This document shows, one piece after another, positions 23,556 through 58,655 of a stretch of 64,000 nucleotides of DNA. A model generated the notes under the pieces. It saw only the letters and a program-made list of their open reading frames with translations. It was not told where the DNA came from and searched no databases. The position numbers were made by a program, and so were the translations under genes. Source of the DNA: Candidatus Levyibacteriota bacterium (lineage in GTDB: Bacteria > Patescibacteriota > Microgenomatia > Levybacterales > UBA12049); assembly GCA_027459725.1 (NCBI GenBank), contig DAIDHK010000001.1, positions 67,411 through 131,410 on the forward strand, written 5' to 3'. How positions within the stretch are numbered: position 1 is the stretch's first letter; every line of letters starts with the position of its first letter.

Positions 23556-25994
23556 ATGAACCTGCCATTTTTTTCAAAGGCAAATAAAAAAACGGAAATA
23601 AGTTATTTTTTAGCCCTTACGTTACGAGATGAACAGATAGGAGCATATGTCCTCAAAGAAGAAGCAGGGAAATTGCACTTAGTAGGCAAGGGTGAAGAAA
23701 TCCTTGACAAATCTATTGAGCAATTAGACTTGAAAAATCAAATTGATATTTTAGACCGCATTATTAGTCAGGCAGAGAGTTCTTTACCCAAAAATGTTAT
23801 GACCCGCAAAACAATGTTTGGGGTCAAAGAAAGTTGGGTCGAAGATAACAAAATAAAAGCTGATTATCTGCATAAGCTCAAACAGATTTGCGATGAACTG
23901 GGCTTACAACCAACTGGGTTTTTAGTAATATCAGAAGCTATTGCGCATCGTTTGCAACAGGAGGAAGGAGCTCCTCTTACTGCCATCCTGGTGGAGATCG
24001 GAAAGAGTCAAATGACCGTTTCACATATTAAAGCAGGTAAGATCCTGGAAACCAAACATACCATAATCATTGAGTCTGCTATTCTGACACTAGATGCTTT
24101 GCTTAAACATTTCATTACCACTACAGTATTACCTACCAGAATCATTTTATTTGACGGTAATAACACTGCTAATTTAACCCAGGAATTTATAGCACATCAA
24201 TGGAGCAAGAGTCTGCCTTTTTTACACATGCCCCAGATTACACCTCTACCTCATGGTTTTGATGCACGCTCGGTTATTCTAGGAGCAGCTGAACAGATGG
24301 GGCTGCAGGTGTCCAGTGATATTAATATGGCTGGATTACCTGAGAAATCAGTTGAATCTAATCCTCCATTCATGGAGAATTTACAACCCGTCACCCCAAT
24401 AATGGACGCTACACCAAATAATCCAGAAGAGCAAGGTGAAGCTGAACCACCAGCTGAAGAATCAACAGAAACAATGGCTCGTGAGTTCGAGAAAAGGTTA
24501 AATGCCAGACTCAGTCCAGACGAGGAAAAAGACCTATCTTCAGTCGATGAAAGTAATGTAACTACTGCCGAAGAGTTTGGTTTTGTCAAAGGAGTCGATA
24601 TTTCAACTTTGCCGCATAAAGAACCACCCATCATGACAGAACATCATAGGCATGAAGAGAATGACATTATTTCGACAGAAGCCATTACAGATTATAGTAG
24701 TGACTACACAAACCATAACTTTAACCAACAGGAAGAACATATAAAACCAAAGCAAAAATTTTCATTGACCAATATGTCTTTCTTATCCGGCAGCATAAAT
24801 AAACTTTTACAGAAATTATTTATGAGTAGCTCTGACTCTCAATCTGATTCTAAAATCCCCCGCTGGATGATTATTGTACCCATTGTCTTACTATTAATAG
24901 TAGCTGGAATTGTATGGTATATTTTTAATGTTAAAGCAACTGTGAATCTTACCTTAAAACCAAAAATAGTTGAAGAACAGGGGAATATTACTTTTGCTCT
25001 CGGCTCTGGCAATGACTTTTCCAATAATACACTTGCGGCTTCGGATGTATCAGTTGACTTAAACGGCACTGCCAGTACGACTGCTACCGGCAGTAAAGCA
25101 GTAGGTTCCCCAGCCAAAGGTACTGTCACCATATATAACAACTCAAATAGTCCGGAGACATTAGCAGCAGGAACAACGATAACTTCCACGAATAATCTTG
25201 TCTTTACATTCGATAATAATGTGACTGTTGCTTCGGCCTCAGGAGATCAGTTTACGGGAACAAAACCAGGTACCGCCGATGTTAACGTAACTGCCAAAGA
25301 TATCGGCCAGCAGTACAATCTTCCTTCCGGCACCGTATTTTCTATTAATGCCGGTAATTCAGTAGCTGCCAAGAATAATAGTGCATTCAGTGGAGGAAGC
25401 AAACAGACAGTCACTGTAGTATCCCAGGCTGATATCAATAAACTGCTTAGCTCTTTACCTCAAAGTCTGCAGAACAAGGCTAAAAGCCAGCTACAAAGTC
25501 AGATATCCAGTGGACAGACACTTCTGCCTGGTATAACCAGTGATAATTTTAAATCCAAATCTTTTAATCACAATATAGGTGACCAGGCCAATTCAGTTAC
25601 GCTAACTGGTACAGTTACTTTCCATGGAGCAGCATATAATAATCAGGATTTACAGAATCTGGCAAAAACCATGTTAAAAGATAAATTTACAGGTAACTCT
25701 TCTTTGTCAGATAAAGGAATTAGTGCTAATATCAGTAACTTGCAACCTTCATCTGACGGCAAAACTATTGGAGCCACAATCGACTTGCAAGCCGGGCTTC
25801 TACCAAACATTGATACATCAAGTCTAATCTCTCAGGTGAGGGGTAAGACTGCCGCTCAGGCTACTCAGGTGTTAGACGGTATACCTCAGATTGAATCAAG
25901 TTCTATCAATCTAAGTCCTAATATACCTCTGATCCCGAAAATTTTACCGCGTTTTTCCAACCACATCACAATCAAGATCAACAGTAATGGCTAA
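23556..25994 (+). CDS. bitopic membrane protein: N-terminal cytoplasmic FtsA/PilM-like actin-fold domain, acidic linker, single TM, large Ser/Thr/Asn-rich extracellular domain
   Basis: The N-terminal ~260 aa align by eye to FtsA ('ISYFLALTLRDEQIGAYVLKEEAGKLHLVGKGEE' vs 'VVGLEIGTAKVAALVGEV...'; 'LTAILVEIGKSQMTVSHIKAGKI' vs 'VCVVDIGGGTMDIAVYTGG'). TM 'WMIIVPIVLLLIVAGIVWYIF' near residue 430; the ~370 aa after it are low-complexity, beta-rich ectodomain. Confidence 0.5.
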   Translation: MNLPFFSKANKKTEISYFLALTLRDEQIGAYVLKEEAGKLHLVGKGEEILDKSIEQLDLKNQIDILDRIISQAESSLPKNVMTRKTMFGVKESWVEDNKIKADYLHKLKQICDELGLQPTGFLVISEAIAHRLQQEEGAPLTAILVEIGKSQMTVSHIKAGKILETKHTIIIESAILTLDALLKHFITTTVLPTRIILFDGNNTANLTQEFIAHQWSKSLPFLHMPQITPLPHGFDARSVILGAAEQMGLQVSSDINMAGLPEKSVESNPPFMENLQPVTPIMDATPNNPEEQGEAEPPAEESTETMAREFEKRLNARLSPDEEKDLSSVDESNVTTAEEFGFVKGVDISTLPHKEPPIMTEHHRHEENDIISTEAITDYSSDYTNHNFNQQEEHIKPKQKFSLTNMSFLSGSINKLLQKLFMSSSDSQSDSKIPRWMIIVPIVLLLIVAGIVWYIFNVKATVNLTLKPKIVEEQGNITFALGSGNDFSNNTLAASDVSVDLNGTASTTATGSKAVGSPAKGTVTIYNNSNSPETLAAGTTITSTNNLVFTFDNNVTVASASGDQFTGTKPGTADVNVTAKDIGQQYNLPSGTVFSINAGNSVAAKNNSAFSGGSKQTVTVVSQADINKLLSSLPQSLQNKAKSQLQSQISSGQTLLPGITSDNFKSKSFNHNIGDQANSVTLTGTVTFHGAAYNNQDLQNLAKTMLKDKFTGNSSLSDKGISANISNLQPSSDGKTIGATIDLQAGLLPNIDTSSLISQVRGKTAAQATQVLDGIPQIESSSINLSPNIPLIPKILPRFSNHITIKINSNG

Positions 25995-26739
25995 TAAATA
26001 TTACTACCATAAAAGAGATATTCAAAAGATCAGGGAAATTGTTCGTTATATCGGCTTAACGATATTTCTGATTGGAATTTTTGGTCTGTTGTATGTCTTT
26101 TTCCCTTTAGTTTCGTGGCAGGTCTACCTGGTTCCCCAGTTAGCTGCACAAGACGTTGTTTCACCTATTCCTGACCAATCAGTGTTATCCTCCTCTTCAG
26201 TAGGTTCTCTGATACAGGATTCTATCAAAGATATCGGAGTAAATTATTCCAATGCAAACAACTGGTTTCCCGGTTATACTCCTGAGTCATCTAATAAATC
26301 ATCCTCAATTCATATTTTCTATCTCTCAATTCCCACCCTCGGGATTTATCACGCTACTGTAAGCAACGCTGATAATGATTTAGATCACCACCTGGTAAAT
26401 TTCGCCGGCACTGCTTCTCCTCCTGAAAAAGGTAATACGGTTATTTTTGGACACTCTACTCTACCACAATGGTTTGATCCTCATAATTACAAAGCAATTT
26501 TTGCAACTGCCTTAAACTTAAAAGTGGGTGATAAAATTATTGCTACGGTTAACGGAGCAGATTATACTTACGTAATAGATAATATCAGCATTGTGAATGC
26601 CGATGACTATACCCCTCTGGAGCAGCAGTATAATGATAGCTATATGACGATTATTACCTGTACGCCTCCAGGTACAACCTGGAAACGTCTGGTGATACAT
26701 TCCCGTCTTGCAAAACTCACGGGTAGTTCTCTACAATAG
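25987..26739 (+). CDS. sortase (class A/E-like transpeptidase), N-terminal membrane anchor
   Basis: Catalytic triad context: His in 'TVIFGHSTL', Cys in the TLxTC-like 'MTIITCTPPG', and Arg in 'KRLVIHSRL'. N-terminal TM 'IGLTIFLIGIFGLLYVFF'. Start overlaps the upstream gene by 8 nt. Confidence 0.8.
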   Translation: MANKYYYHKRDIQKIREIVRYIGLTIFLIGIFGLLYVFFPLVSWQVYLVPQLAAQDVVSPIPDQSVLSSSSVGSLIQDSIKDIGVNYSNANNWFPGYTPESSNKSSSIHIFYLSIPTLGIYHATVSNADNDLDHHLVNFAGTASPPEKGNTVIFGHSTLPQWFDPHNYKAIFATALNLKVGDKIIATVNGADYTYVIDNISIVNADDYTPLEQQYNDSYMTIITCTPPGTTWKRLVIHSRLAKLTGSSLQ

Positions 26740-36904: not shown

Positions 36905-38167
36905 CTACCAGGAGGGTAAAAATTCTTTGATATTGCTGTCATTTACGACTACAGTTTGTACTTTTCCTTCAACAATCAATCTGGCCGATTTACGACACAT
37001 ATTGTCTATGGTCCTTTCTAGAGTACGAATACCTGAATCAAAACCCAAAGGGCGGATAACACCTGCCCAGGAATTATCGTCAATCGTCATTTGCTGTGGC
37101 AATAAACCGGCCTGTTGACGAATTTTTGGGAATAGGTAAGTCTTAGCAATCACTATCTTTTCTTCATCCGAGTAAGAGGGCATTTGAATAATTTCCAAAC
37201 GGTCCATCACCGCAGTTGAAATAGCCGTCGTATTGTTGGCTGTAGCCACAAAGAGAACATGTGATAAATCAAAGGGATAATCAATATAATGATCAATAAA
37301 AGCTGCATTCTGTTCCGGATCTAACAGCTCAACTAAAACTCCCATGATATCGGCACGGGAAGCTTCAGTCACACGATCCAGCTCATCTAGTAAAATAACT
37401 GGATTTTTAGTCTTGGCATGAACTAATTTCTTGATCACCGAGCCCGGTTCTGCATCAGGAAAAGCACGCGACTGGCCTCTGAGGGCTAGAGAATCAGCCA
37501 TACCTCCAAATGGTATGCGTTCAAACTGCTTGCCTAAAGCTTCAGAGATAGATTTTGCCAAAGTTGTCTTACCCGTACCGGCTAATCCTACTAAACATAA
37601 GATTGGTGCGTGCTGTATATTGTTAACTCCACCATTTTTTAAATTCAAAATAATAGTAGCCAGATAATCCAAAATTCTACTTTTAATTGGCTCAAGTCCA
37701 TAGTGATTTTTATCCAGAATTTCTTTTGCATTGACTAGATCCAGTGAATCTTTAGAAAGGGTGTTCCAGGGCAAACCAATCACCCAATTAATATAATTGG
37801 ATGTACTTTCATATTCTAAAATGTAATTTGCACTCATAAAACCAGCACTGGCTCTGATTAATGCCAAGCGTGCAATTCGCTCGACCAGTGACTGATGTAA
37901 ATCTGCAGGTAGCTTTATTGACTCAATTTTTTCTCCTAATTTCCTTATTTGATCATTTGAACTCGCTTTGGCTTTATCCTCTTCTGTCTCTTTTACGACA
38001 GTCTGACGATTATCAGGAGCAATAATCTGCGGTCCTGATGGAACGTATGTCGTCTGATCCATAGGCAAATCTTGATTAACTGGCTGAGATTGTACTGATG
38101 GTGCATTTAAACCGCTAGTCGGCGTACTTGAAGATGTAACATTTTCCGTTTGGGCAGTGGAATTCAT
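36905..38167 (-). CDS. Lon-like AAA+ ATPase module without LonN or S16 protease domains
   Basis: 'LDKNHYGLEPIKSRILDYLA...ILCLVGLAGTGKTTLAKSISEALGKQFERIPFGGMADSLALRGQSRAFPDAEPG...PVILLDELDRV...LDPEQNAAFIDHYIDYPFDLSHVLFVATANN' is collinear with Lon AAA+ ('DHYGLEKVKERILEYLAV...LCLVGPPGVGKTSLGKSIA...'). The ORF stops where the protease domain would begin, and RNase J starts 49 nt later. Confidence 0.75.
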   Translation of the reverse strand: MNSTAQTENVTSSSTPTSGLNAPSVQSQPVNQDLPMDQTTYVPSGPQIIAPDNRQTVVKETEEDKAKASSNDQIRKLGEKIESIKLPADLHQSLVERIARLALIRASAGFMSANYILEYESTSNYINWVIGLPWNTLSKDSLDLVNAKEILDKNHYGLEPIKSRILDYLATIILNLKNGGVNNIQHAPILCLVGLAGTGKTTLAKSISEALGKQFERIPFGGMADSLALRGQSRAFPDAEPGSVIKKLVHAKTKNPVILLDELDRVTEASRADIMGVLVELLDPEQNAAFIDHYIDYPFDLSHVLFVATANNTTAISTAVMDRLEIIQMPSYSDEEKIVIAKTYLFPKIRQQAGLLPQQMTIDDNSWAGVIRPLGFDSGIRTLERTIDNMCRKSARLIVEGKVQTVVVNDSNIKEFLPSW

Positions 38168-46986: not shown

Positions 46987-49392
46987 TCACTTTGTTAAAA
47001 CAATCTGTCCACTGGCATCGACATTTAAAACGATCTTATCTCCCCTTTTAATCTGATCCTGAAGTTTTGCTTTTGCCAATAAGTCTTCTATATTATCCTG
47101 AATATACCTTCTCATCGGACGAGCTCCAAATTCAACGTCAGCACCTTCTTTAACAATTTTATCTATAACAACCTCGCTAAATGATAGACCAATATCCTGC
47201 TGTGCCATTTGACCAATAATGTCATTTAAAATTAACTGCACAATTTGCTTTAATTCCACAGGACCAAGTGGAGTAAAGGTAATAACATCATCAAAACGGT
47301 TTAGTAGTTCAGGACGGAAAATCTGATTTTGCTGCAGATATTCTAACAGCTTTTGCTGAAACACTTTATCTATTTTCTGTCCTGACACAACATTTTCACG
47401 AACAAATTCTGCTCCTGCATTTGAGGTGGCAATAATAATACTGTTCACAAAAGTAACCGTATGGCCTTTATTATCTGTCAAACGTCCATCTTCTAATACC
47501 TGCAAAAACAAATCAAGAATTTTAGGATGAGCTTTCTCAAATTCATCCAGCAAAACTAAAGAAAACGGATGATCATGAATTTTATCAGTCAGTTCGCCTC
47601 TTTCATTCCCCTCTCCGGGGGCTGAACCAAGTAGTCTTCTCTCTCCATCAATATCGGAGTACTCAGACATGTCCAGACGAATCATATTCTGTTCGCCGCC
47701 AAAATATACCGAAGCTAAGGCTTTAGCTGTTTCTGATTTGCCGACTCCAGTTGGCCCTAAGAAAAGGAAAGAAATGGGTCTATTCTGTGTAGTTAGGCCT
47801 GAGCGTAAACGCCTAAGTGCCTCAGCAATGGCCGAGATAGCCTGCGTCTGATCAATAACCTTTTCATGAATTTTATCTTCCAAATGCAATAATAATTCTT
47901 TTTCCTCTTTGGTAGGAGCACCTACATTAACCTGAGTTTTTAAACTGATTTGTGCCTCGATGTCACTGGCTAATACTACTTTTTGTCTTGACTTACCCAG
48001 ATAATGAGATTGTGAAGAAATTGCCACACTATTAGCCGCATCGTTGAGTAAGTTAACAGCACTACCTGGCAGCACCGCATCCTGCTCGTAACGGTCAGCC
48101 AGGTTAATAGCAGTCAGTACTGCATGATAAGTCATTATCACACCATTTTTATTTTCTATATCATCTGTTTTGGCAATTAGCATTTGCGTCGCAATATCTT
48201 TACTGGGTTCAAGAATATTGATTAAGGTAAACACTTCATGGAGTGGATTCTGCTGCATGTAAGTTTTGTAATTACCGGGTGACATACTGGCAATTACCGG
48301 CAGAAAGCCAGACTGTAAATAGGGCAACAGAGCGCCGGACAAATCTATAGCATAAGAACTTGCTCCCATCAAATTTTCAAAATCAGGAATATACAAAATT
48401 ACATTTCTGGCATGTGAGACTTCGGCTACGATCGATTCTAAACGAAGCTCTAAGTCACTACGGTCTTGCGCTCCGGCAATAAGCGGACCCACCATAAGCT
48501 GTAAAATCTTCTTATGATTAAGAAAGCCTGAAAGATGAGAGTAATAACTATCATTGGCCAACTCAGCCACCAGATTTTCTTTCCCTACACCATCTTCGCC
48601 CACCAGTAACACATTATTGTTTTCCCTTTTGCTCAGTGCTTCTAAAAGCGCTCTATATTGATCTTCTCTTCCTATTAAAAACGGTTCTATATCACGATAA
48701 CTAAAGTCCTGTGTATAATTTTTAGTCTCCGGGGTCCAACCATTTACAATCCCTTCGCCTATTCCTTCACCGGTAAAATTCATTCTAATTGGTCTGGGGA
48801 ACTCTTCGTTTTTAAATTTATAACGAGCCCATAATAATATTTGAAGTAGTTCCTCCTGTTTAATTTCATGATTGAAAAGTGTTTTGGTCTGATCTTCGCT
48901 CAAGAGCAAATAAGCAACCAGAGCGTCCATAGTAGTAATATAACTTCCGCCTATTTTCTCTACAATTTCTGCCGCTTTAGCAATAATTTGATCTGTGGGG
49001 ATATCTAGAACTTTAATATCCTCAACTGGTATCGCTGATTTTTCTAATACAAAAGACACGGTGGGAGTTTTTAATAATTTGTAAATAAATTTTTGCAATG
49101 TAATTGCAGAAAACAAAATTTGTAATAAATCTTTACTGCTAGACAGTGTCCATTTACCTTTATCATTTCTATTTACAGGTAGATAAGGATGAGATAAGTA
49201 GACATGAAAACGAAAAAATATTTCACAGATCAGAAACCATACAAAAACAAATAACGGCAAGCTAACTGGAAGTTTATGATTTAACTGGTTGAGAAAAAGT
49301 AAAATCACAAATACAAAGACTAATGTTCTGACAGACCGCAATAGCGCAGATGTATATATAATCTTTAATTTAACTAAACCTTCAATATTCAT
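46987..49392 (-). CDS. membrane-anchored Clp/Hsp100-family AAA+ ATPase with degenerate D1 and intact D2; no ClpP-docking loop
   Basis: Two N-terminal TM helices ('TLVFVFVILLFLNQL', 'LPLFVFVWFLICEIFF'), then a Clp_N-like repeat. D1 Walker A 'GEDGVGKEN' (canonical GEPGVGKT) and Walker B 'ILYIPDFEN' (canonical ILFIDELH) have lost catalytic residues. D2 is intact: 'FLGPTGVGKSETAKALA', '[29 protein letters not shown]', 'ATSN', 'GARPMRR'. No [ILV]G[FL] loop and no M-domain. Confidence 0.8.
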   Translation of the reverse strand: MNIEGLVKLKIIYTSALLRSVRTLVFVFVILLFLNQLNHKLPVSLPLFVFVWFLICEIFFRFHVYLSHPYLPVNRNDKGKWTLSSSKDLLQILFSAITLQKFIYKLLKTPTVSFVLEKSAIPVEDIKVLDIPTDQIIAKAAEIVEKIGGSYITTMDALVAYLLLSEDQTKTLFNHEIKQEELLQILLWARYKFKNEEFPRPIRMNFTGEGIGEGIVNGWTPETKNYTQDFSYRDIEPFLIGREDQYRALLEALSKRENNNVLLVGEDGVGKENLVAELANDSYYSHLSGFLNHKKILQLMVGPLIAGAQDRSDLELRLESIVAEVSHARNVILYIPDFENLMGASSYAIDLSGALLPYLQSGFLPVIASMSPGNYKTYMQQNPLHEVFTLINILEPSKDIATQMLIAKTDDIENKNGVIMTYHAVLTAINLADRYEQDAVLPGSAVNLLNDAANSVAISSQSHYLGKSRQKVVLASDIEAQISLKTQVNVGAPTKEEKELLLHLEDKIHEKVIDQTQAISAIAEALRRLRSGLTTQNRPISFLFLGPTGVGKSETAKALASVYFGGEQNMIRLDMSEYSDIDGERRLLGSAPGEGNERGELTDKIHDHPFSLVLLDEFEKAHPKILDLFLQVLEDGRLTDNKGHTVTFVNSIIIATSNAGAEFVRENVVSGQKIDKVFQQKLLEYLQQNQIFRPELLNRFDDVITFTPLGPVELKQIVQLILNDIIGQMAQQDIGLSFSEVVIDKIVKEGADVEFGARPMRRYIQDNIEDLLAKAKLQDQIKRGDKIVLNVDASGQIVLTK

Positions 49393-49721
49393 AGCTTAAT
49401 GAAAAATAAAAGAAATGAAAAAACTGGTAACAGGACAAAAACGCATATAAACATAAATTCAGCGCACAATAAAACCAACAACAGCAACAAGGAAATTAAA
49501 ATAAGAGCTGTCTTCACAAAAATCCCCATGCCGATAGAAAATCCTACCAGACCCTGCCTGTATTCATTTTTAATAGGTTGAAAAAAAGTTCTTAACAATA
49601 ACCCGACAGAAAACATACGTAAGAAGGAGGAATTAAGTGAAGAAAAATACGACAACAGTCCAAGCGGAGCATTTACATACCAGAATTTCAAAAACTCAAC
49701 CGGCAACAGTGAATATTGCAT
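49389..49721 (-). CDS. small polytopic membrane protein
   Basis: 110 aa, three predicted hydrophobic segments. Its stop overlaps the TM-Clp start (translational coupling). Fills the gap downstream of the M4 protease. Confidence 0.4.
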   Translation of the reverse strand: MQYSLLPVEFLKFWYVNAPLGLLSYFSSLNSSFLRMFSVGLLLRTFFQPIKNEYRQGLVGFSIGMGIFVKTALILISLLLLLVLLCAEFMFICVFVLLPVFSFLLFFIKL

Positions 49722-49781: not shown

Positions 49782-51863
49782 CTACTGACATGCAAAAGTA
49801 CACAACTGCAATCCCCCTGCTCCATGTGAACATTTACTGACGACCTTACATCCCGGCAAAGCCATGTTTGCCTGATTTAATAAACCAGACGGGACCTTCC
49901 ACTCAATCAAATAGTTGCCAGTTTGTGAGATAGTTGTTGAATAAGGTCCAATGGTTATGCCATCGGGTAATTGAGCTGTCAGCTGCAATTGTCCAAAACT
50001 AAAATCAGAAAAATCAACCGCTCCAGTGAGACTCGTAACACCTGTAAACTGCTGACCGCCAGAACTTAAAGTCAAGTTTACATTCGATATACCCTCATTA
50101 CCATCATAATATCCGTTGCCATTAAGATCGTTATAGACGATAACATGTAAAGATAAATCCGCTGAGGGAGTACCTGTAAGACTAACTGTACCATTTGGAC
50201 TCACAGTTGGAGATGGTGAGACTCCTTTTGTCGACAGAGGCTGACTGCTGCATGCAGGAGCAACTTCAGTTCTATTTAAACATACAGCTCCCTGCTGTGT
50301 ATTAACCGGTTGCTGATCCATCTCAGTAGCCTGTAAAGCTTTTTCAACATTAACACAAGTATTAGAGTACCCTCCATATAAATCATTACAGGCTAACAGC
50401 ATGTCAATATACATATCGGAAAAATTTGCTGAAGGAATTAAATAATGAGTTAGCGCCCGATATTGAATCTGATAACTGGCACTGCCTATACCATCAATCT
50501 GACAGCCGTTAAAACTTCCTCCCTCAGTCATCAAATAAAAAGCTTTATTCATCACACCCTCGTTGGAATGAACTCCTCCACTGTCTTGAGTATCACAGAT
50601 ATACAACGGAGAAAAAAGTTTATCCGGCTGACCAGTAAGTGTAGGATCATTCAGATATCTAAAAGGTGTTTTAACTCCCGCAATATGAACATCCGCTCCT
50701 ATTGACCAGTTATGATCAATGCCGGTAGCAAAAATATCTGAATTGCTTTCATTTAATGCTCCTGACTGATAGCTATAAATTAATCCTGCAGTGTAATGAG
50801 TTACCGCATGCGTTAATTCATGTGTGACGATGTCCAAAACATCCATACCGGCACATAATTCAATCCCACCGTCTACATAAGCTGAATTAGGACAGGGGAA
50901 TCCCGCAATATCAGCTCTGTTCACATAACCAAAAAGGGTTGCACCTTTATTATCTATACTGTCGCGGTTAAAATTGTTTAGATAAAACTGGTATACCTGC
51001 CCGAAAATATCATAAAGTTTATTGACGTCAGTGTTCATGGAGGGGGGCTGACCCTCTGTACGACTCACTACGCAATTATCAGAGTTGTTACAGTTGCTGA
51101 TGTTGCGGGCTAAAAGTGTTTCTACCTGATTTTCCTGGTAAACAATTTTTCCACTGGTTAAGTCAATAAAATAACGTGTAGCAAAATCCGGTGGTTTGTT
51201 CGATGTAGTTATTAAAACAGCTAAAACATGATAGGTAGTGCCATTATTGCTCAGGCCTAAAGCCTGCAGATTTAATAAGTACTCATTATCATTAGCAACC
51301 TTTAAATTTAAATGAGGATTATCCTTTCTTGCCTGGTTTAAGGCAATCATTTCAGCTTTCTCCCGGTTGATTTGGGTACTCAAAGTAGCAGGTTGCTTAG
51401 TAACCACTACCCCCGAAGCAGCATATATCTCGTCCACATGCTGAATGTGAACCGCGATAATCCCATCATAAACAGGTATATTATCTATGGTTTGCTGATA
51501 AAAATAATGTTCGGTGCCTGGTAGATAGTAGGTAGGACTTTGCTGGTCAACCAAGCTTCTCTGTAAAACAACCTTGGAATAACTATTTAAACCATTCCCA
51601 AAAATCCCGTTAGGATTTGCGCTAATAAAATCTAATGCTGCTGCCTCCCCCTGCTGATTTGATTTATATAAATAACCATTTTCAGTGTACAAGGAAAAAG
51701 CATTATCATTGCTATGTGTAACAGTATAAGAATCTTTGCCTAATATCTGAGGACTGATCCTAATCTGACTGACAAAATATGTTATTAAAGTAACTAATAT
51801 AAGTAATACGAAAGCTTCGACTAACCAGTATCTTCTCAAATACTTTAAAACCTTTTCTCTCAT
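49782..51863 (-). CDS. secreted M4 (thermolysin-like) zinc metalloprotease with N-terminal signal anchor/propeptide and C-terminal beta-rich extension
   Basis: '[33 protein letters not shown]' = HEXXH plus the downstream Glu ligand. '[17 protein letters not shown]' and '[16 protein letters not shown]' are collinear with thermolysin ('[34 protein letters not shown]...GGVHINSGIINKAAYLI'). Confidence 0.85.
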   Translation of the reverse strand: [693 protein letters not shown]

Positions 51864-51923: not shown

Positions 51924-54900
51924 CTAGACAATACCGGAATTCGGGGAATCTTCATTGCTGATCAAGGCCGCTGCAGCTACAGCAGGAGGAGCAAATGTTG
52001 TACCCGTCACACCAGACGGCATCGAGACCGGAGAAATCGGCTGAGAGGGTAACTGATCAACAATAGCTGCAGGCGAGCCCGTTAGTAGTCCTGCATCGAC
52101 AGAATTCACGGGAGAACCAGAATTTAATCCTCCTACAGAAGGCATCTGAGAGGAGACTCCCGCAACAGCATTATTCATTGAGTTTGTATAACTTTGAGCG
52201 AGATCTCCCACTGTTTGCATTAAAGGCTGGGGATTATTCAAAGTGCCATCAGCAATACCAGGATCGGTCGCAATAACTGGCGACTGAGACAATGGCTGAC
52301 TACTCACGCTTAAACCTGAGGTAGGAATACTGGTACTCACAATGGGTTGAGATGCTATAGTTGAAGCTGATGCAGACAGAGTATCTGCTGATTGAAGTGT
52401 AGTAGGATTTGCAGACAACTTTGTATTTGTAGGCTGAAGTGCAGAGGGATTGTCCGTGGTATCTACAGCTTGAGGCTGGGGTAGTAATTTGATAAAGCTA
52501 AATTCAGATTTTTGCTGATCATAGTCAATTTTGATAATATCTCCTGCTATAAAAGTTTTGTTAATAATTTTCATGGCAATTGGATTTTCTATCGAGGATT
52601 GAATTAATCTGCGTAGCGGACGAGCACCGTACTGGGGATCATAACCTTCCTTAGCTAAAACTTCCAGAGCTCCATCAGTAATTTGTAAAGAAAACCCCTG
52701 TTCCTTGAGTAATTTATCAGTCTTATCAACTCCTAACTTGGCAATATACTTCATATCCTGCTGACGAAGCGGCTGAAACATAATTATTTCATCAAAACGA
52801 TTCAGCAATTCCGGACGGAAAAATTTATGCAAATCATCAGAAATTTTAGCTTGCATTTCCTTATACATTTTCTGATATTCCTCAGGAGTCTTAGTAGGTT
52901 TGGATAATTGATCCTGAATATCCTGACTGCCAATATTGGAAGTAGCGATAACAATAGTATTTTTAAATGAGATAGTATTACCTTTATTATCAGTCAAACG
53001 TCCGTCTTCTAATAACTGTAATAAAATATTAAACACATCCGGATGTGCTTTCTCTATTTCATCAAGCAGAACAATAGAATAAGGCTTGGCACGTACAGCC
53101 TCTGTTAATTGTCCTCCTTCTTCATAGCCCACATAACCGGGAGGCGCTCCAATTAATTTTGCCACCTCATGCTTTTCCATGTACTCTGACATATCCAAGC
53201 GCACCATTGCGTCATCCCGTCCAAATAGAATCTCCGCTAATGTTTTGGCTAACTCAGTCTTTCCTGTTCCTGTTGGACCAAGAAAAATAAAAGAAGCGAT
53301 CGGACGATTAGCCGCTGATAAACCAATCCTACCTCTACGCACTGCTTCTGCTACACCACTAACAGCCGGCTCCTGATCAATCAAACGCTGATGTATACGT
53401 TTTTCCAATTCCAGCAATTTCTGGCTTTCATCTTCAGTTAATTTGGTGATAGGAATACCGGTCCATGCGCTAACAACTTTTTCAATATCGGAACGCAACA
53501 CGCTATTATCTTTCCTTTTACCTGAGGACAACTGTAATTTAACTTCAGCCGCAGCTTCGTCTAACAGATCAACAGCTTTGTCAGGCAAATATCGCTCACC
53601 AATATACTTTTTAGAAAGTTTAACCGCCTGTTCTAACGCTTCATCCGGAATAGTGACATGATGATAATTCTCATACTTAGTTTTCAGAACCCTCAACATC
53701 TTTACAGCTGTTTGTTCATCCGGCTCTTCCGCCACAATTGGCTGGAAGCGGCGTGCAAATGCTTTATCTTTCTCAAAATATTTTCTGTATTCTGAAGTCG
53801 TTGTTGTTCCAATAATCTGCAATTGTCCGCGTGCTAAATTTGGCTTGATAATATTAGAGGCATCAAGCGACCCCTCATTATCACCTGTCCCAACCAGTGT
53901 ATGGATTTCGTCAAAAAACAAAATAATTTGTCCGCCGCTGGACATAGAGTCACGCATCACACTGCGAAGTCGCTCTTCAAATTCCCCCCTGTGGCTTGCT
54001 CCTGCAACTAGAGATGCAACATCTATCTGAATGATTTTTTTATTTTTTAATTCCTCAGGAACATTTCCTGTTACGATAGCTTGAGCTAAACCTTCTACAA
54101 TAGCTGTTTTCCCAACTCCTGCTTCACCGATAATAATAGGATTATTTTTGGTTCTGCGTAAAAGAATATGTACTAATCTGTCTACTTCTCTTTCCCTCCC
54201 TGCCACAGGATCCAATCCCCCCTCTTTTGCTTTTTCTGTCAGATCCACACCAAATTTATCCAGCACAGACTTCCTGCCTTCTATATAAGCTGAAGACTTT
54301 CCCAATTGAGCTACTACATCAGCTTTTTTTAAACCTTCTGCCTGTAACGTCGTCCCACTGGAAGAAGAAAAAACCGCCAATAAAATATCTTCCGGAGCAA
54401 TAAATGAGCTACTGCGCTCTTTAGCGGTGGTAAATGCACTTTCGAAGATTTGTTTGACTTGATCACTTAAAGTGGGCTGGCCTGCAAAAGTACCTACGAT
54501 TTCTTTAGCTTGTATTTCCCGGGATAGCTTCGCAACATCAACTTTAAATTGTTCTAGAAGCTTATAAATATCTGTGTCATATAACAGACCAAATAGCAAC
54601 TGTTCAGGCATTATAACTGCCTGCTGTATACGCATTGATTCCTGCTTAGCATGCATTAAAACCTGCATGGAACGGGAATCCAGATGAGATAGAGCTGATA
54701 AATCCTCACGACGTGAAGGGTCCATAACTGCATTGTTAGATGGAGTAGGAACAGATACCGGAATAGAAGATGGAGCTGTCGTTGTAGTAGTACTGGTCTG
54801 CTGAAAAGTAGGAACGGGTACAGCCACTGCTACCGGAGCTACTACCATTGGTCCGCTCGCACTAATTGTGGCTGTACTACTCTGAGTAGTCTGTGTAGTT

Positions 54901-54995
54901 TGTGTAACAGGAGAATTCACCTCCGATTGAGCAGAAGGATTAGAATCATTATTTTTTGCACTAAATAAATTTCCTAGCATATATCTATTGTTCAA
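51924..54995 (-). CDS. Clp/Hsp100-family AAA+ ATPase, ClpA-like architecture (Clp_N-D1-D2), without M-domain or ClpP-docking loop, with ~230-aa disordered Ser/Pro/Thr/Gln-rich C-terminal tail
   Basis: D1 '[18 protein letters not shown]' and '[12 protein letters not shown]'. D2 '[17 protein letters not shown]', '[29 protein letters not shown]', 'GARPLRR'. The D1-D2 linker is short. The sequence after sensor-1 ('[19 protein letters not shown]...') has no IGF/VGF tripeptide. Confidence 0.85.
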
Positions 54996-55024
54996 TTTTT
55001 CTTTGCATTAGTCAAGCTGACTAA

Positions 55025-57925
55025 TTATTCTGATTTATTTTTGAACTCTTCAACAGTTTTATCCTTTTTTTCATCAGCATATTCATTCACCGATACGTCC
55101 AAATGCCCCTCCAGTTTGTCCTGCTGAACTGAGGTTGTTCTTTGACTAAGAAGTGTATCCTCTTCCTCTTCCTGTTTGCCCAAGTTGGCCAGTACTTCTT
55201 TAGCAGCTTGTGCTTTAGCTTTTAAGTAAGCCACAATTTCAGATTGTGAGAAACCTCCAATCAGCAAAAACGGCAGAATTCCAGACACACGCTGCATGCC
55301 CTGACTTACTTGTAATTGATCCTGAGAGGAAAGTAAAGAAATTGTCTCTGCAATATCCTCAATATCTGAAATCAGCCATGACTTACGATCACTGATCCTT
55401 CCATCCAGCGTTTCTGGAACATCCATGTTAGTATAGTTATCAGCCCACATCTGTCTGACAGCTTCATAATCCTCAATGCTGACGGTCTGAATGCGGTTAG
55501 AAGAAGGCAGATTTGCTCCCGCATTGGAGATCTGAACACCATTTTGCGCTAAAAGTTCTAACACCTTTACGGCTAAGGGATCTCCCTTTTGTTTGGCATC
55601 CTGCAAAGTCTTTAATAAACGTTGAACTTGAGAAATAATATCGGGAGATTGTGCAGATGCCAATAATTCAGTAGCCAATTTATTACCCTTTCGACTTTCC
55701 TGTTTGAGTTGATCATGTAATTTGGTAACTGTTGGCAGATCAACTTTACCTTTTTGAGAAAATAGTTTAGTAGCAGCTAATACATTTACTGCGACAGGAT
55801 TACTACTAGCACTTTCCTGATGCAATGTCTGTACAATTGTATTAAGGGTTGAGGGCAGAGTAGACGTAGACTGAGTAGCAATTTTTTGAATCATTTGGGA
55901 AATACTTTCGATTTCCGTTTTATTAATAGTATTCATAGTTGAGACGACCAGCGAAGCGGTAGTATTACCTTTTTCACTTTGCTCAACTATGGTCTGACGT
56001 ATCTCATTAGCTTTAGTTCTCTCCATCTGACTAGCCGCAATTGTAGGATTTAAGATTGTATTCATGGTTTGTTGAACCGTATTTGCTGTCTGTTTGCTGA
56101 CACTGGTAGCCGTAGCCAGAGACGCCGCCTGTAAAATGTTCTTTGCTAAAACATTTCCCTTCTGACTCTCAACCATTAATCTTCCTCTTATCTGGCGGTA
56201 TGTATCCTGTTGAGCACCAATCGCACTGGTCGGGTTAGCAATTTTCGACAACGTTTGTTCATAACGTAGCGAGGTAGGAGAGGATTTATTAACTATCATA
56301 TTTTTCTCAAATTGCGCTATGTCACGCATAGTGGGAACATTAAGATTAGTCAGGCGCATAAGCTCAGAATTTATTTTTACAGGTATTTGAACCGGTTGAT
56401 TCCTTTTAATATCCACGTTTACTGGTACTTTAAAATTAGCCCCAAAAGGCAACGACTTAGCCAGACCTGTGGGTTTATACTTACTTGGAGGTTGAGGGGA
56501 AATCGGTGAAGGAGGGGGGGGATTAAACATAGCAGGACTTCTGGCTATCAGCTGCTGTACCCATGCGTTCTCATTAATTGAAAATGAATTAAGATAATCA
56601 AGAAAAATCTGCAAAAGAATAAACGGTAATAAGATAACTACCCATAACATCATTAATGCCACAATATATTCTGCAAAAGTTTCGACATAATTTATGCTAT
56701 TGTTAATACCGACCTGTTGTTTGGGTCCACCAAGCAAAATATTAATAGCTGTAGGAAACCTATCCAACAACTCCGGTGAGCCGGGTTTAAAGGTTGAAGG
56801 ATCCTGTCCGCCTAATACAGCGGAAGAATTATACGTATCTCCTGCCAAATCTGTATGTGTATAGTCTGTGAAGTTAAGAGGAATATAATTTACCCATACG
56901 CTTACCAAGCCGGCAAGTAATATTGAAAACAATGGTGCATACAATAACCAGCGGAAGAATTCACCTATCCAAATTTTGGCCGTATTACGAACCGGACTAA
57001 AAAATAGAAGTAAGGGGAAAACGGGAGAGAGGATAATAAAAAACCACATGATAATTTTACGCAGCAACAAAATACCAACCATAACGTAATACGTGATGGC
57101 TGTCAGCTTGACGAGTAACAGAGCAATAAAAGCAGATTCCGTAGCGGAAGGATCTGCCAAGCGCAAACCAACAAATGTGGCGTAATCCCATCCTACAAAC
57201 AAGAGATCTTTTTGTGAAATATTATTGGGAGCATATGTAGGACTTTTAAGAAAGAATAACTGGATGATATCTCCTAACTGGTAGAGAAATTGAATTATAC
57301 TCCAGGAAAAATATACTAAAATCACAATTACTATAAAGCGGATAATAAAACGCCTAACGCTTAAACTTCTACCCCGCGTTGCTATAATGACAATAGCGGC
57401 AACAATCAATACTACTGCCAGCATTGCATATACAATATAACTAATTTTTAACCAGAAAAGCTGTAAAGGATTTTGAGAGGGAGATCCTCCACTTCCCGGC
57501 ATAAGATATACCCAACCAAAATTTTTTGCGCTTAAAGTCCAGTCAAGCAAAAGTCCCGCGCGGGCAGCATTTTGCCCGACAAAAGTTACTTCACTATCAG
57601 GCACATAAGTTCCAGTCGGCACTGGAGTGGTACCCACACCAATTGCACCTGCTCCTCCACCAGGAGTAGGAGAAGGCGTTGGCGTGGCAGTAGGGGTGGG
57701 AGAAGGAGTTGGTGTAGGTGTATTTATGGGAGCAGAACAACCACATGATGGACCAGATAATCTACTACTAGGTGCTACACAAAAACAAGTTTGTCCAACA
57801 GGGCATGTACCATTGGTACTACCCCCACAAGTATAAGTTGCTGCATCTACAAGATAAGCAGAGTTAAAAAATAAACCAAAATAAACTAACAATGCAATGA
57901 AGATGCTGGGCAGTTTTTTCAACAT
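55025..57925 (-). CDS. large polytopic membrane protein: signal peptide, Cys-rich and Pro/Thr-rich ectodomain, ~7 TM helices, ~480-aa C-terminal domain with degenerate 'KGNxLAxxxLxxA' repeats (VirB6/TrbL-like topology?)
   Basis: Signal 'MLKKLPSIFIALLVYFGLFFNSAYLVDA'. Eight Cys in 'TYTCGGSTNGTCPVGQTCFCVAPSSRLSGPSCGCS'. (TP)n linker. Multiple hydrophobic helices between residues ~150-470. Repeats 'ESQKGNVLAKNILQAA', 'EQSEKGNTTASLVV', 'ESRKGNKLATELLASA', 'AKQKGDPLAVKVLELLA'. Confidence 0.6.
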   Translation of the reverse strand: MLKKLPSIFIALLVYFGLFFNSAYLVDAATYTCGGSTNGTCPVGQTCFCVAPSSRLSGPSCGCSAPINTPTPTPSPTPTATPTPSPTPGGGAGAIGVGTTPVPTGTYVPDSEVTFVGQNAARAGLLLDWTLSAKNFGWVYLMPGSGGSPSQNPLQLFWLKISYIVYAMLAVVLIVAAIVIIATRGRSLSVRRFIIRFIVIVILVYFSWSIIQFLYQLGDIIQLFFLKSPTYAPNNISQKDLLFVGWDYATFVGLRLADPSATESAFIALLLVKLTAITYYVMVGILLLRKIIMWFFIILSPVFPLLLFFSPVRNTAKIWIGEFFRWLLYAPLFSILLAGLVSVWVNYIPLNFTDYTHTDLAGDTYNSSAVLGGQDPSTFKPGSPELLDRFPTAINILLGGPKQQVGINNSINYVETFAEYIVALMMLWVVILLPFILLQIFLDYLNSFSINENAWVQQLIARSPAMFNPPPPSPISPQPPSKYKPTGLAKSLPFGANFKVPVNVDIKRNQPVQIPVKINSELMRLTNLNVPTMRDIAQFEKNMIVNKSSPTSLRYEQTLSKIANPTSAIGAQQDTYRQIRGRLMVESQKGNVLAKNILQAASLATATSVSKQTANTVQQTMNTILNPTIAASQMERTKANEIRQTIVEQSEKGNTTASLVVSTMNTINKTEIESISQMIQKIATQSTSTLPSTLNTIVQTLHQESASSNPVAVNVLAATKLFSQKGKVDLPTVTKLHDQLKQESRKGNKLATELLASAQSPDIISQVQRLLKTLQDAKQKGDPLAVKVLELLAQNGVQISNAGANLPSSNRIQTVSIEDYEAVRQMWADNYTNMDVPETLDGRISDRKSWLISDIEDIAETISLLSSQDQLQVSQGMQRVSGILPFLLIGGFSQSEIVAYLKAKAQAAKEVLANLGKQEEEEDTLLSQRTTSVQQDKLEGHLDVSVNEYADEKKDKTVEEFKNKSE

Positions 57926-58346: not shown

Positions 58347-58655
58347 TTAAGCTCCAAATCCGGGTAATTTTAAGATGTCAACTAAAACTATCTGAATAAA
58401 CAGATAACCAAAAATAGCTAATAACAATCCGGCAATAGCATAATATAAATAACTTTTACCATTACGTAAGGCAGCAGGATCCCCCTGTGACGTAAGAAGA
58501 ATATATGCTCCATAGAGAATAAATATTAAAGAAAGTCCTCCGATAATACTTAAGCCAATACCATAAAACCTTTCAGCAAAGGCTACAGGATCAGTAGGTA
58601 AGCAACCAAAATCAGTTGTGATTCCGCTTCCTCCATTTGGTAAAGTACACTGCAT
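58347..58655 (-). CDS. small 2-TM hairpin membrane protein (VirB2/TrbC-pilin-like topology), first gene of the operon
   Basis: 102 aa. Two hydrophobic helices ('IGLSIIGGLSLIFILYGAYILL', 'LYYAIAGLLLAIFGYLFIQIVLV') separated by the polar loop 'TSQGDPAALRNGKS'. No N-terminal signal peptide. The resemblance is architectural only. Confidence 0.45.
   Translation of the reverse strand: MQCTLPNGGSGITTDFGCLPTDPVAFAERFYGIGLSIIGGLSLIFILYGAYILLTSQGDPAALRNGKSYLYYAIAGLLLAIFGYLFIQIVLVDILKLPGFGA

Follow-up and report, generated by a model that had tools for sequence, protein, structure and literature searches.

A Levybacterial two-ring Hsp100/Clp ATPase with disordered arms, lacking the M-domain and the ClpP-docking loop, encoded beside VirB2-like and TrbL/VirB6-like proteins

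The DNA considered here, a 64-kb stretch from a Candidatus Levyibacteriota bacterium of the Patescibacteriota (contig DAIDHK010000001.1, positions 67,411 to 131,410; hereinafter the window), is ordinary chromosome carrying groEL, lepA, rpsG, alaS, ftsK, rnj, pnp, infB, nusA, dnaJ and dnaK. On its minus strand it also encodes a Clp/Hsp100-family unfoldase (hereinafter Clp), which has neither an M-domain nor a ClpP-docking loop, is extended at both ends by disordered arms and lies downstream of genes for a VirB2-like and a TrbL/VirB6-like membrane protein. All the evidence presented below is computational. The open reading frame (ORF) at 51924-54995 is single and uninterrupted, spanning 1023 amino acids (aa) when counted from a TTG, and we confirmed it to be a real, intact gene of this family. 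Its start is most likely the ATG at 54980 rather than the TTG at 54995, because a 100% identical database protein of 1018 aa (P0001) begins there, five codons after the TTG, and because the N-terminus M[LF]GNLF is conserved in homologs. Residues of Clp are numbered from this ATG, and its features are the following:

51924-54980, minus strand: Hsp100/Clp gene, 1018 aa plus stop (ORF, identity to P0001, conserved N-terminus)
54963-54980, minus strand: N-terminal motif MLGNLF (family conservation)
54723-54980, minus strand: N-terminal extension, residues 1-86, rich in T, S, V, P and A, predicted disordered (AlphaFold2)
54276-54722, minus strand: Clp_N domain, about residues 87-235, with a conserved opening motif (Pfam; AlphaFold2 confidence score, pLDDT, of 87-96 for residues 101-230)
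53538-54263, minus strand: D1 AAA+ module (motif columns match ClpA, ClpB and ClpC)
54105-54128, minus strand: D1 Walker A
53970-54005, minus strand: D1 pore loop, Tyr replaced by His
53901-53924, minus strand: D1 Walker B
53490-53537, minus strand: D1-D2 junction, without M-domain (gap-free alignment to the E. coli ClpA junction)
52761-53492, minus strand: D2 AAA+ module (Pfam AAA_2, motif columns)
53256-53279, minus strand: D2 Walker A
53112-53150, minus strand: D2 GYVG pore loop
53052-53075, minus strand: D2 Walker B
52821-52928, minus strand: segment after D2 sensor-1, the ClpP-docking position in ClpA and ClpC, without [ILV]G[FL] (HMMER alignment to S. aureus ClpC; MAFFT)
52485-52760, minus strand: D2-small domain (Pfam ClpB_D2-small; last AlphaFold2 strand at residues 826-832)
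51927-52469, minus strand: C-terminal tail, residues 838-1018 (181 aa), predicted disordered, with two conserved islands (AlphaFold2, coding evidence)
52170-52229, minus strand: tail island 1
51954-51998, minus strand: tail island 2

Clp displays all the features of the class-I (two-ring) Hsp100/Clp ATPases, namely a Clp_N domain, two AAA+ modules with their motifs and a D2-small domain; the Pfam domains recovered are Clp_N, AAA (D1), AAA_lid_9, AAA_2 (D2, E = 1e-71) and ClpB_D2-small (E = 1e-22). In a MAFFT alignment with E. coli ClpA and ClpB (both from NC_000913.3) and ClpC-type sequences, the Walker A, Walker B, sensor-1, arginine finger and sensor-2 positions of both rings are canonical and agree column by column with those of ClpA, ClpB and ClpC, as had been surmised in an earlier sequence-only reading of this DNA. 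Family counts given here and below refer to the best 120 homologs (at least 120 exist). In 116 of them the KY of the D1 pore loop is replaced by SH, a change overlooked in that reading, and the GYVG of D2 is invariant across homologs. Judged by its motifs, Clp should be able to work as an ATPase in both rings, and its D2 translocation loop is intact.

Hsp100 proteins are commonly classified by their coupling, either to ClpP via a docking loop or to Hsp70 via the M-domain. The stretch between the D1 lid and D2 of Clp comprises 13 residues, as in ClpA, with ClpC having ~60 and ClpB ~120 extra residues at this point in the MAFFT alignment, and the ClpA junction LMPVSKRKKTVNVADIESVV aligns with that of Clp residue for residue. 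This ClpA-type junction, seen in alignment with real ClpA, ClpB and ClpC, substantiates the earlier proposal that the linker is too short for a ClpB/ClpC M-domain; across the family, the spacing from one Walker A to the other is 282-283 residues in 104 of the 109 homologs in which it is measurable. The docking position of the second coupling element is occupied by [VLF]GF in six of the seven Clp/ClpC reference sequences and by IGL in ClpA (MAFFT), whereas neither HMMER alignment to S. aureus ClpC nor MAFFT places an [ILV]G[FL] at the aligned position of Clp. The whole protein has just two [ILVMF]G[FL] tripeptides, FGL130, which sits in a helix of the N-domain, and IGL552, which aligns with the AGL preceding the D2 Walker A of ClpA, ClpB and ClpC. 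A hidden ClpP loop is ruled out by the alignment with ClpA and ClpC together with this inventory of every candidate tripeptide, and the absence of a docking tripeptide after sensor-1, first noted by eye of the sequence, stands on proper alignment. The same holds for the family, with no [VLFI]G[FL] at the docking position in the 107 homologs having an extractable loop, the length of which is variable. Two homologs (P0028, P0034) have K/E/D/P-rich low-complexity insertions of 40-95 aa exactly at the M-domain site, and three others (P0092, P0117, P0085) have insertions of up to ~100 aa at the ClpP-loop position; the surface sites freed by the lost M-domain or ClpP loop seem to tolerate disordered inserts.

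A Clp from Saccharibacteria (L040, 10001-12277, 45% identity) retains a short ClpC-type M-domain but not the GF loop, and its D1 pore shows KH; the 10 kb upstream of it contain neither a VirB6-like nor a pilin-like gene. Its state suggests a stepwise loss of the coupling elements, of which it would be a possible intermediate. This sequence and the reference ClpC sequences were taken from a scan of genome contigs with the Clp core, which otherwise recovered mostly generic ClpC genes (the DMSEYMEK pattern being universal) and no Patescibacteria synteny.

The folded part of Clp is flanked by disordered arms on both sides. In an AlphaFold2 model computed with a 70-sequence alignment, residues 87-837 are folded with pLDDT mostly 75-96, and residues 1-86 and essentially all of 838-1018 have values of ~30 (below 50 in the tail) and no confident secondary structure. 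The sequence-only reading had described a disordered C-terminal tail of ~230 aa; the disorder is borne out by the model, but the tail is 181 aa long, and the 86-aa N-terminal extension had escaped notice altogether. The latter consists of MLGNLF, a variable T/S/P/Q-rich linker and the conserved motif that opens Clp_N, and it shows a ratio of nonsynonymous to synonymous substitution rates (dN/dS) of 0.11 against the L001 ortholog. Across the homologs its length is anywhere between 16 and 215 aa; 106 of the 120 have GNLF in their N-terminal region, and the protein opens with MFGNL in 60 and with MLGNL in 50 (110 of the 120).

The tail is dominated by S (17%), A (12%), P (11%), T (10%) and V (8%), with one basic and 10 acidic residues. 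Relative to L001, which is 80% identical overall, 93% in the core and 46% in the tail, its frame is kept, the indels are all whole codons and the dN/dS is ~0.28, with a proportion of nonsynonymous differences (pN) of 0.37 as against 0.04 in the core; each of the other five frames of the region holds 7-15 stops. On this codon-level evidence, the tail is coding and under purifying selection. A frameshift artefact, a possibility raised with the original description, is ruled out by the kept frame, the whole-codon indels, the dN/dS of 0.28 and the stops in the other five frames, and the tail survives that check with no alternative open frame. Within it, the island QPLMQT.GD.AQSYTNS is common to Clp and its closest ortholog, and a second, F[AS]PPAV..A.L, ~20 residues from the end, is kept in four orthologs down to 61% identity. 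All 120 homologs carry residues past the canonical Hsp100 end: the stretch beyond the GARP motif plus 50 residues, which includes ~3 residues of the folded domain, runs to 43-337 aa (median 96). In 45 of the 120, a DGTQMQ[PK]-like motif lies 2-7 residues from the C-terminus; the sub-clade of Clp has FAPPAV in its place. Eight other ORFs of the window have low-complexity S/T/P-rich stretches, seven of them with an N-terminal signal or anchor, and no such stretch occurs in the window's cytosolic housekeeping enzymes RpoB/C, GroEL, DnaK, IF-2, PNPase, FtsK and RNase J; low-complexity arms on a cytosolic ATPase are unusual within the window.

The homologs are 59-82% identical to Clp and 827-1215 aa long, and the sampled lineage is narrow, in that those with an organism name are all from Patescibacteria and mostly from Levybacteria. 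In a neighbor-joining tree of 723 conserved columns they form a separate clade beside ClpB and ClpC, with 46-48% identity over these columns to ClpB/ClpC and 38% to E. coli ClpA. Clp reaches none of the NCBIfam Hsp100 equivalog cut-offs, scoring 893.9 with ClpB (TIGR03346, cut-off 1232.1), 716.8 with ClpA (TIGR02639, 993.15), 699.5 with ClpV (TIGR03345, 884.95), 552 with PRK11034 (1350), and 679 and 703 with the ClpG and ClpK models (1900). Among these models that of ClpA alone matches in a single stretch, the matches to ClpB (TIGR03346) and ClpV each being split into two. The label "ClpA-like" given in the sequence-only reading is therefore apt for the domain architecture and misleading for family identity: Clp falls in its own clade, and identity as ClpA is excluded by the tree, the 38% identity and the cut-offs. 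Judging from these comparisons, Clp falls short of ClpA, ClpB, ClpC, ClpV, ClpG and ClpK alike, in each case by a cut-off or by a characteristic element, and its clade seems specific to Patescibacteria of the Microgenomatia/Levybacteria type. Database records label the homologs "ATP-dependent Clp protease ATP-binding subunit" or "ClpB", and no description of the clade, of its arms or of a link to VirB6-like genes was found in the literature.

The contextual information from the gene neighborhood points to a possible membrane partner. Genes on the minus strand of the window run in the order 102-aa pilin-like protein, 138-aa protein, 966-aa membrane protein, Clp, M4 peptidase, 110-aa membrane protein and 801-aa Clp paralog, of which those upstream of Clp concern us first (TM, transmembrane; T4SS, type IV secretion system; HMM, hidden Markov model):

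58347-58655, minus strand: VirB2/T4SS_pilin-like protein, 102 aa, two TM helices (Pfam T4SS_pilin, E = 4e-4, below cut-off)
55025-57925, minus strand: putative TrbL/VirB6-like polytopic membrane protein, 966 aa, directly upstream of Clp (PF04610 matches of homologs)
55556-56257, minus strand: ~60-aa helical repeats of the VirB6-like protein (repeat HMM)

We compared the window with ten further loci, reached via Clp homologs, membrane-protein homologs or a repeat-bearing fragment. In 11 of the 11 the genes for the VirB2-like protein, the VirB6-like protein and Clp follow one another in this order on one strand, with a gap between the latter two of 5-182 nt (44 nt in the window). Elsewhere in the cluster genes are inserted or shuffled while the three-gene order stays, even though the VirB6-like proteins of the loci are just 33-43% identical. 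In the seven loci tested with tblastn, all seven have the pilin-like protein at 50-96% identity and the membrane protein at 37-82%; the former is unusually well conserved and always encoded upstream of the VirB6-like gene. Between the latter and Clp lies a perfect 7-bp inverted repeat (55008-55024, TTAGTCA-GCT-TGACTAA), right after the VirB6-like stop and ending 27 nt before the Clp start, which could be a small hairpin or an operator.

As to what these proteins are, the weak T4SS_pilin match recurs in five related loci. The window's 966-aa protein itself has no significant Pfam match; TrbL (PF04610) matches are found in nine of 30 of its homologs, two of them above the gathering score (27.8 and 27.1 versus 25.9), and map to the TM core at profile positions 4-178 of 215. 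We infer from these homologs that it is a divergent TrbL/VirB6-like protein. A published survey of T4SS (PMC12102498) reported that Patescibacteria carry VirB2-like (PF18895) and VirB6/TrbL-like genes, with VirB6 "scarce" in Microgenomatia, probably by reason of divergence, and the 966-aa protein may be the VirB6 in question. In the same survey the Patescibacteria T4SS is defined by VirB4, with virB4 near dnaA in this class, and its main text is without Clp or AAA proteins (PMC12102498).

C-terminal to its TM core, at residues 557-790, the VirB6-like protein carries a ~60-aa helical repeat, in two complete and three partial copies, with the consensus KEVLEQIANPASVTNTVEREKFTKLREKLVKESQKGNQLATSILSAANK (IANP...ER...ESQKGNxLAxxIL); the repeat is not covered by any Pfam family. 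An HMM built from 300 repeats of VirB6-like homologs finds 3-10 strong copies in each of 120 VirB6-like proteins, the homologs being 780-2800 aa long. Among the other ORFs of at least 60 aa in the window and the ten loci, copies are found only in the C-terminal tails of three Clp orthologs, those of L093 (1427 aa, E = 5e-59), L092 (1253 aa, E = 9e-45) and P0040/L086 (1125 aa, E = 2e-35). A fourth case is L094, in which a 942-aa Clp is followed by a 445-aa ORF, the two being split by a 1-nt indel in a nanopore contig. A word-indexed homolog search with the repeat region returned one protein only, and an exhaustive phmmer search was used in its stead: the 445-aa L094 tail gave 89 matches in all among 1.84 billion representative proteins. 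The 75 that were classified comprise 56 VirB6-like proteins, two Clp proteins (one of them full-length, P0244, 1444 aa) and 17 short repeat-only fragments, and the remaining 14 were already among the VirB6-like homolog set. The repeat module hence appears to be exclusive to the two proteins that are encoded side by side, from which it follows, by a Rosetta-stone-type argument, that both C-terminal regions would act together or bind the same partner. Further, since Clp is cytosolic, we argue that the repeat domain of the VirB6-like protein would be cytoplasmic, although a crude hydropathy count points outside.

In light of the above, we tentatively favor, at slightly less than an even chance, the reading that Clp is a ClpP-independent unfoldase recruited to a VirB6-like membrane module. 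Canonical ClpP docking would not be expected because the docking tripeptide is missing, and neither would switching by Hsp70, because the M-domain is missing. Both rings would bind and hydrolyze ATP, with the substrate threaded through the D2 GYVG pore. Each subunit would contribute two disordered arms, one of 86 aa tipped by MLGNLF and one of 181 aa emerging from the D2 exit face, giving twelve per hexamer, and these arms would bring the hexamer to the repeat domain, taken to be cytoplasmic, of the TrbL/VirB6-like protein, together with the VirB2-like protein. There the ATPase might pull or unfold proteins, either feeding polypeptide toward the module or extracting subunits from it. As the C-terminal arms would leave the D2 face, where ClpP docks in ClpA and ClpC, the membrane module would take the place of ClpP at the exit port; the opposite orientation, with extraction from the membrane via the N-terminal side, is equally possible. 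The data bear directly on the architecture and its conservation in the family, the disorder of the arms, the operon-like synteny and the helical repeat common to VirB6-like proteins and some Clp tails, whereas what Clp binds, what it acts on, in which direction it works and that it is independent of Hsp70 we infer. That the tail tethers the unfoldase to the co-encoded membrane complex had been suggested before; the synteny in 11 of 11 loci and the repeat shared by the tails of about five orthologs give it genuine if indirect support, although the repeat is missing from the tail encoded in the window.

Several observations weigh against recruitment to a VirB6-like module. Besides the restriction of the repeat to about five orthologs, the tail is fast-evolving relative to the core. 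The VirB6 assignment comes from weak Pfam matches, and it gained nothing from a Foldseek search of the AlphaFold model of the 966-aa protein (pLDDT 65) against the PDB, which gave no significant match, or from tblastn of the VirB6-like core against plasmids, which gave none. By a simple count of hydropathic segments, six TM helices follow the signal peptide, which would leave the C-terminus of the VirB6-like protein outside the cell. There is no VirB4 or VirD4 nearby, with no VirB4 within 10 kb of the unit, and the unit lies between dnaK and nusA, whereas the published survey places virB4 near dnaA (PMC12102498). The synteny could also be partly inherited rather than selected, as all the loci come from one bacterial class. 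Finally, the cluster adjoins hrcA-grpE-dnaK-dnaJ, a setting equally suited to a general chaperone role.

This last point leads to the strongest alternative, a general cytosolic disaggregase or unfoldase of the heat-shock locus that would substitute for ClpB, with arms that bind aggregates or act as entropic spacers and an inherited adjacency to the VirB6-like gene; we consider it possible but on balance doubtful. In its favor, hrcA-grpE-dnaK-(dnaJ) lies upstream in the loci with flanks long enough, and in six loci the end of dnaJ is 29-86 nt from the pilin-like gene, making read-through from an operon controlled by CIRCE (controlling inverted repeat of chaperone expression) possible; moreover, the conserved Clp_N and D2 pore loop are typical of disaggregases, and some database records call the homologs ClpB. 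On the other hand, the M-domain, the element that couples ClpB to DnaK, is missing and the D1 pore-loop tyrosine is lost. The dnaJ link is broken in the window and L001, which have the same two opposite-strand genes in between, as well as in L003, L087 and L094. A CIRCE-like inverted repeat, TTrGCAsTC-N9-nnnTGCTAA, which departs from the consensus at 2-4 positions, is present in a single copy per locus and precedes hrcA by 25-140 nt:

L085:2896, L087:3814, L093:5486, L088:3128, L003:599, L086:75: CIRCE-like copies in the related loci

No CIRCE was found in the window and no second copy before the pilin-like/VirB6-like/Clp unit in the related loci, the element thus lying only upstream of hrcA and never before the unit. 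A disaggregase also leaves unexplained why Clp tails carry the repeat otherwise exclusive to VirB6-like proteins and why the three-gene unit stays contiguous while the dnaJ link breaks. The disaggregase and membrane-module readings are, however, not mutually exclusive.

A quite improbable alternative is that Clp is the ATPase partner of a peptidase, either a ClpP encoded elsewhere or another protease, with docking at some element other than the usual loop, for instance the hydrophobic C-terminal island. In its favor, the nearest relative of solved structure, ClpC, is itself a partner of ClpP; the D1-D2 junction is of the ClpA type, as in a protease partner; the conserved islands close to the C-terminus emerge from the D2 face, the usual dock of ClpP; and a clpP is annotated in another patescibacterium, the saccharibacterium TM7x. 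Nevertheless, the docking tripeptide is absent at the loop position of every homolog examined, neither the 64-kb window nor the 20-kb flanks of the ten loci encode a ClpP, and the terminal motifs vary between sub-clades. The peptidases that are co-encoded with Clp, for their part, are of the M4 or S8 type and signal-anchored, therefore extracytoplasmic. Such an M4 or S8 peptidase follows Clp, directly or past one small ORF, in six of the 11 loci (among them the window, L085, L086, L087 and L088), being M4 in some and S8 (subtilisin-type) in others, a case of non-homologous replacement at one position. Finally, that the tail is an artefact (of a frameshift or a read-through fusion) or meaningless low-complexity sequence is vanishingly improbable, since its low-complexity composition and the 1-nt indel splitting the Clp tail of the L094 nanopore contig are outweighed by the whole-codon indels, the dN/dS of 0.28, the stops in the other five frames and the extension of all 120 homologs past the canonical Hsp100 end, many with conserved terminal motifs.

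Returning to recruitment by a membrane module, the genes downstream of Clp offer a further candidate component:

49782-51863, minus strand: signal-anchored M4 (thermolysin-type) peptidase, directly downstream of Clp (Pfam Peptidase_M4, M4_C)
49389-49721, minus strand: conserved 110-aa membrane protein, with a 4-nt overlap with the Clp paralog
46987-49392, minus strand: membrane-anchored Clp paralog, 801 aa (Pfam, motif columns, TM scan)

The Clp paralog has an N-terminal TM hairpin (residues 16-59) and a dead D1, with GKE in Walker A, IPDFEN in Walker B and the arginine fingers lost; its D2 is intact but without the pore-loop tyrosine of GYVG. Such a TM-anchored paralog is found near Clp in nine of the 11 loci (fragmented in L094), usually with a ~109-aa partner, and it may serve the tailed Clp as a membrane anchor or as a regulatory partner. 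One may go further and envisage an as yet undescribed AAA+-driven envelope machine, in which a re-purposed Hsp100, docked by its arms onto a VirB6-like channel, would work together with the VirB2-like protein and the membrane-anchored pseudo-ATPase paralog, passing unfolded polypeptide into a T4SS-derived membrane module or pulling subunits out of it, with Clp as the dedicated unfoldase of a type IV-like system; this more elaborate proposal we regard as rather unlikely.

Elsewhere in the window, the minus strand at 36905-38167 encodes a 420-aa protein with an AAA and a Lon lid domain and without the Lon protease domain, a stand-alone Lon-type ATPase module. On the plus strand at 23556-26739, an 812-aa ORF, which is without a Pfam match and of low complexity over 186 aa in its middle, is followed, with an 8-nt overlap, by a sortase gene, and the two are likely a surface-protein/sortase pair. 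Rfam, tRNA and tandem-repeat scans returned nothing relevant.

When set against the known Hsp100 systems, Clp combines likenesses to several. It resembles ClpA of the E. coli type (TIGR02639) in having Clp_N and two directly joined rings without an M-domain, and differs from it in lacking the IGL loop, branching outside ClpA, and having a histidine in the D1 pore and long disordered arms; neither clpS nor clpP is adjacent to it. Its highest sequence similarity (711 bits) is to ClpC of the Firmicutes/Actinobacteria type, with which it shares the same N-domain and D2 features and which supplies its best PDB match (6em8, S. aureus ClpC), but it is without the short M-domain, which docks MecA and McsB, and the [VLF]GF loop; both of these are present in six of the seven Clp/ClpC references, the Saccharibacteria sequence having the M-domain only. 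To ClpB/Hsp104 it is linked by the absence of the ClpP loop, the adjacent dnaK-dnaJ and its top NCBIfam match (894 bits), but it has no coiled-coil M-domain, and canonical coupling to Hsp70 is therefore impossible. In yeast Hsp104 a C-terminal extension ends in a short partner-binding motif; the tail of Clp is about five times longer and uncharged. The stand-alone disaggregases ClpG and ClpK are marked by an extra N1 domain and an M-domain, and Clp scores far under the cut-offs of their models. From the T4SS of Patescibacteria (PMC12102498) the unit differs in having no VirB4 within 10 kb and in lying between dnaK and nusA. If the VirB6 assignment is right, the unit nonetheless locates the VirB6 homologs that the survey reported as scarce in Microgenomatia (PMC12102498).

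We accordingly see in this clade a set of Hsp100 proteins with neither of the usual coupling elements, having in their place a disordered arm at each end and a constant genomic partnership with VirB2-like and VirB6-like proteins. Should the partnership not be physical, the clade would still illustrate a stand-alone Hsp100 of a minimal genome without the canonical regulators. Should it be physical, Clp would be a candidate for the unfolding step of type IV-like secretion in host-dependent organisms that rely on cell-surface machinery. The nearest precedent is then ClpV/TssH of the type VI secretion system (T6SS), a ClpP-independent Hsp100 that serves a co-encoded envelope machine, which it recognizes via a terminal element. 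The likeness would be conceptual only, that of a ring serving a co-encoded envelope machine: ClpV has an M-domain and sits in T6SS clusters, whereas Clp scores below the cut-off of TIGR03345 and the window has no T6SS genes. With a physical partnership, the tailed Clp of Levybacteria would nevertheless be, next to the ClpV of the T6SS, the second and only other Hsp100 devoted to a machine of the cell envelope.

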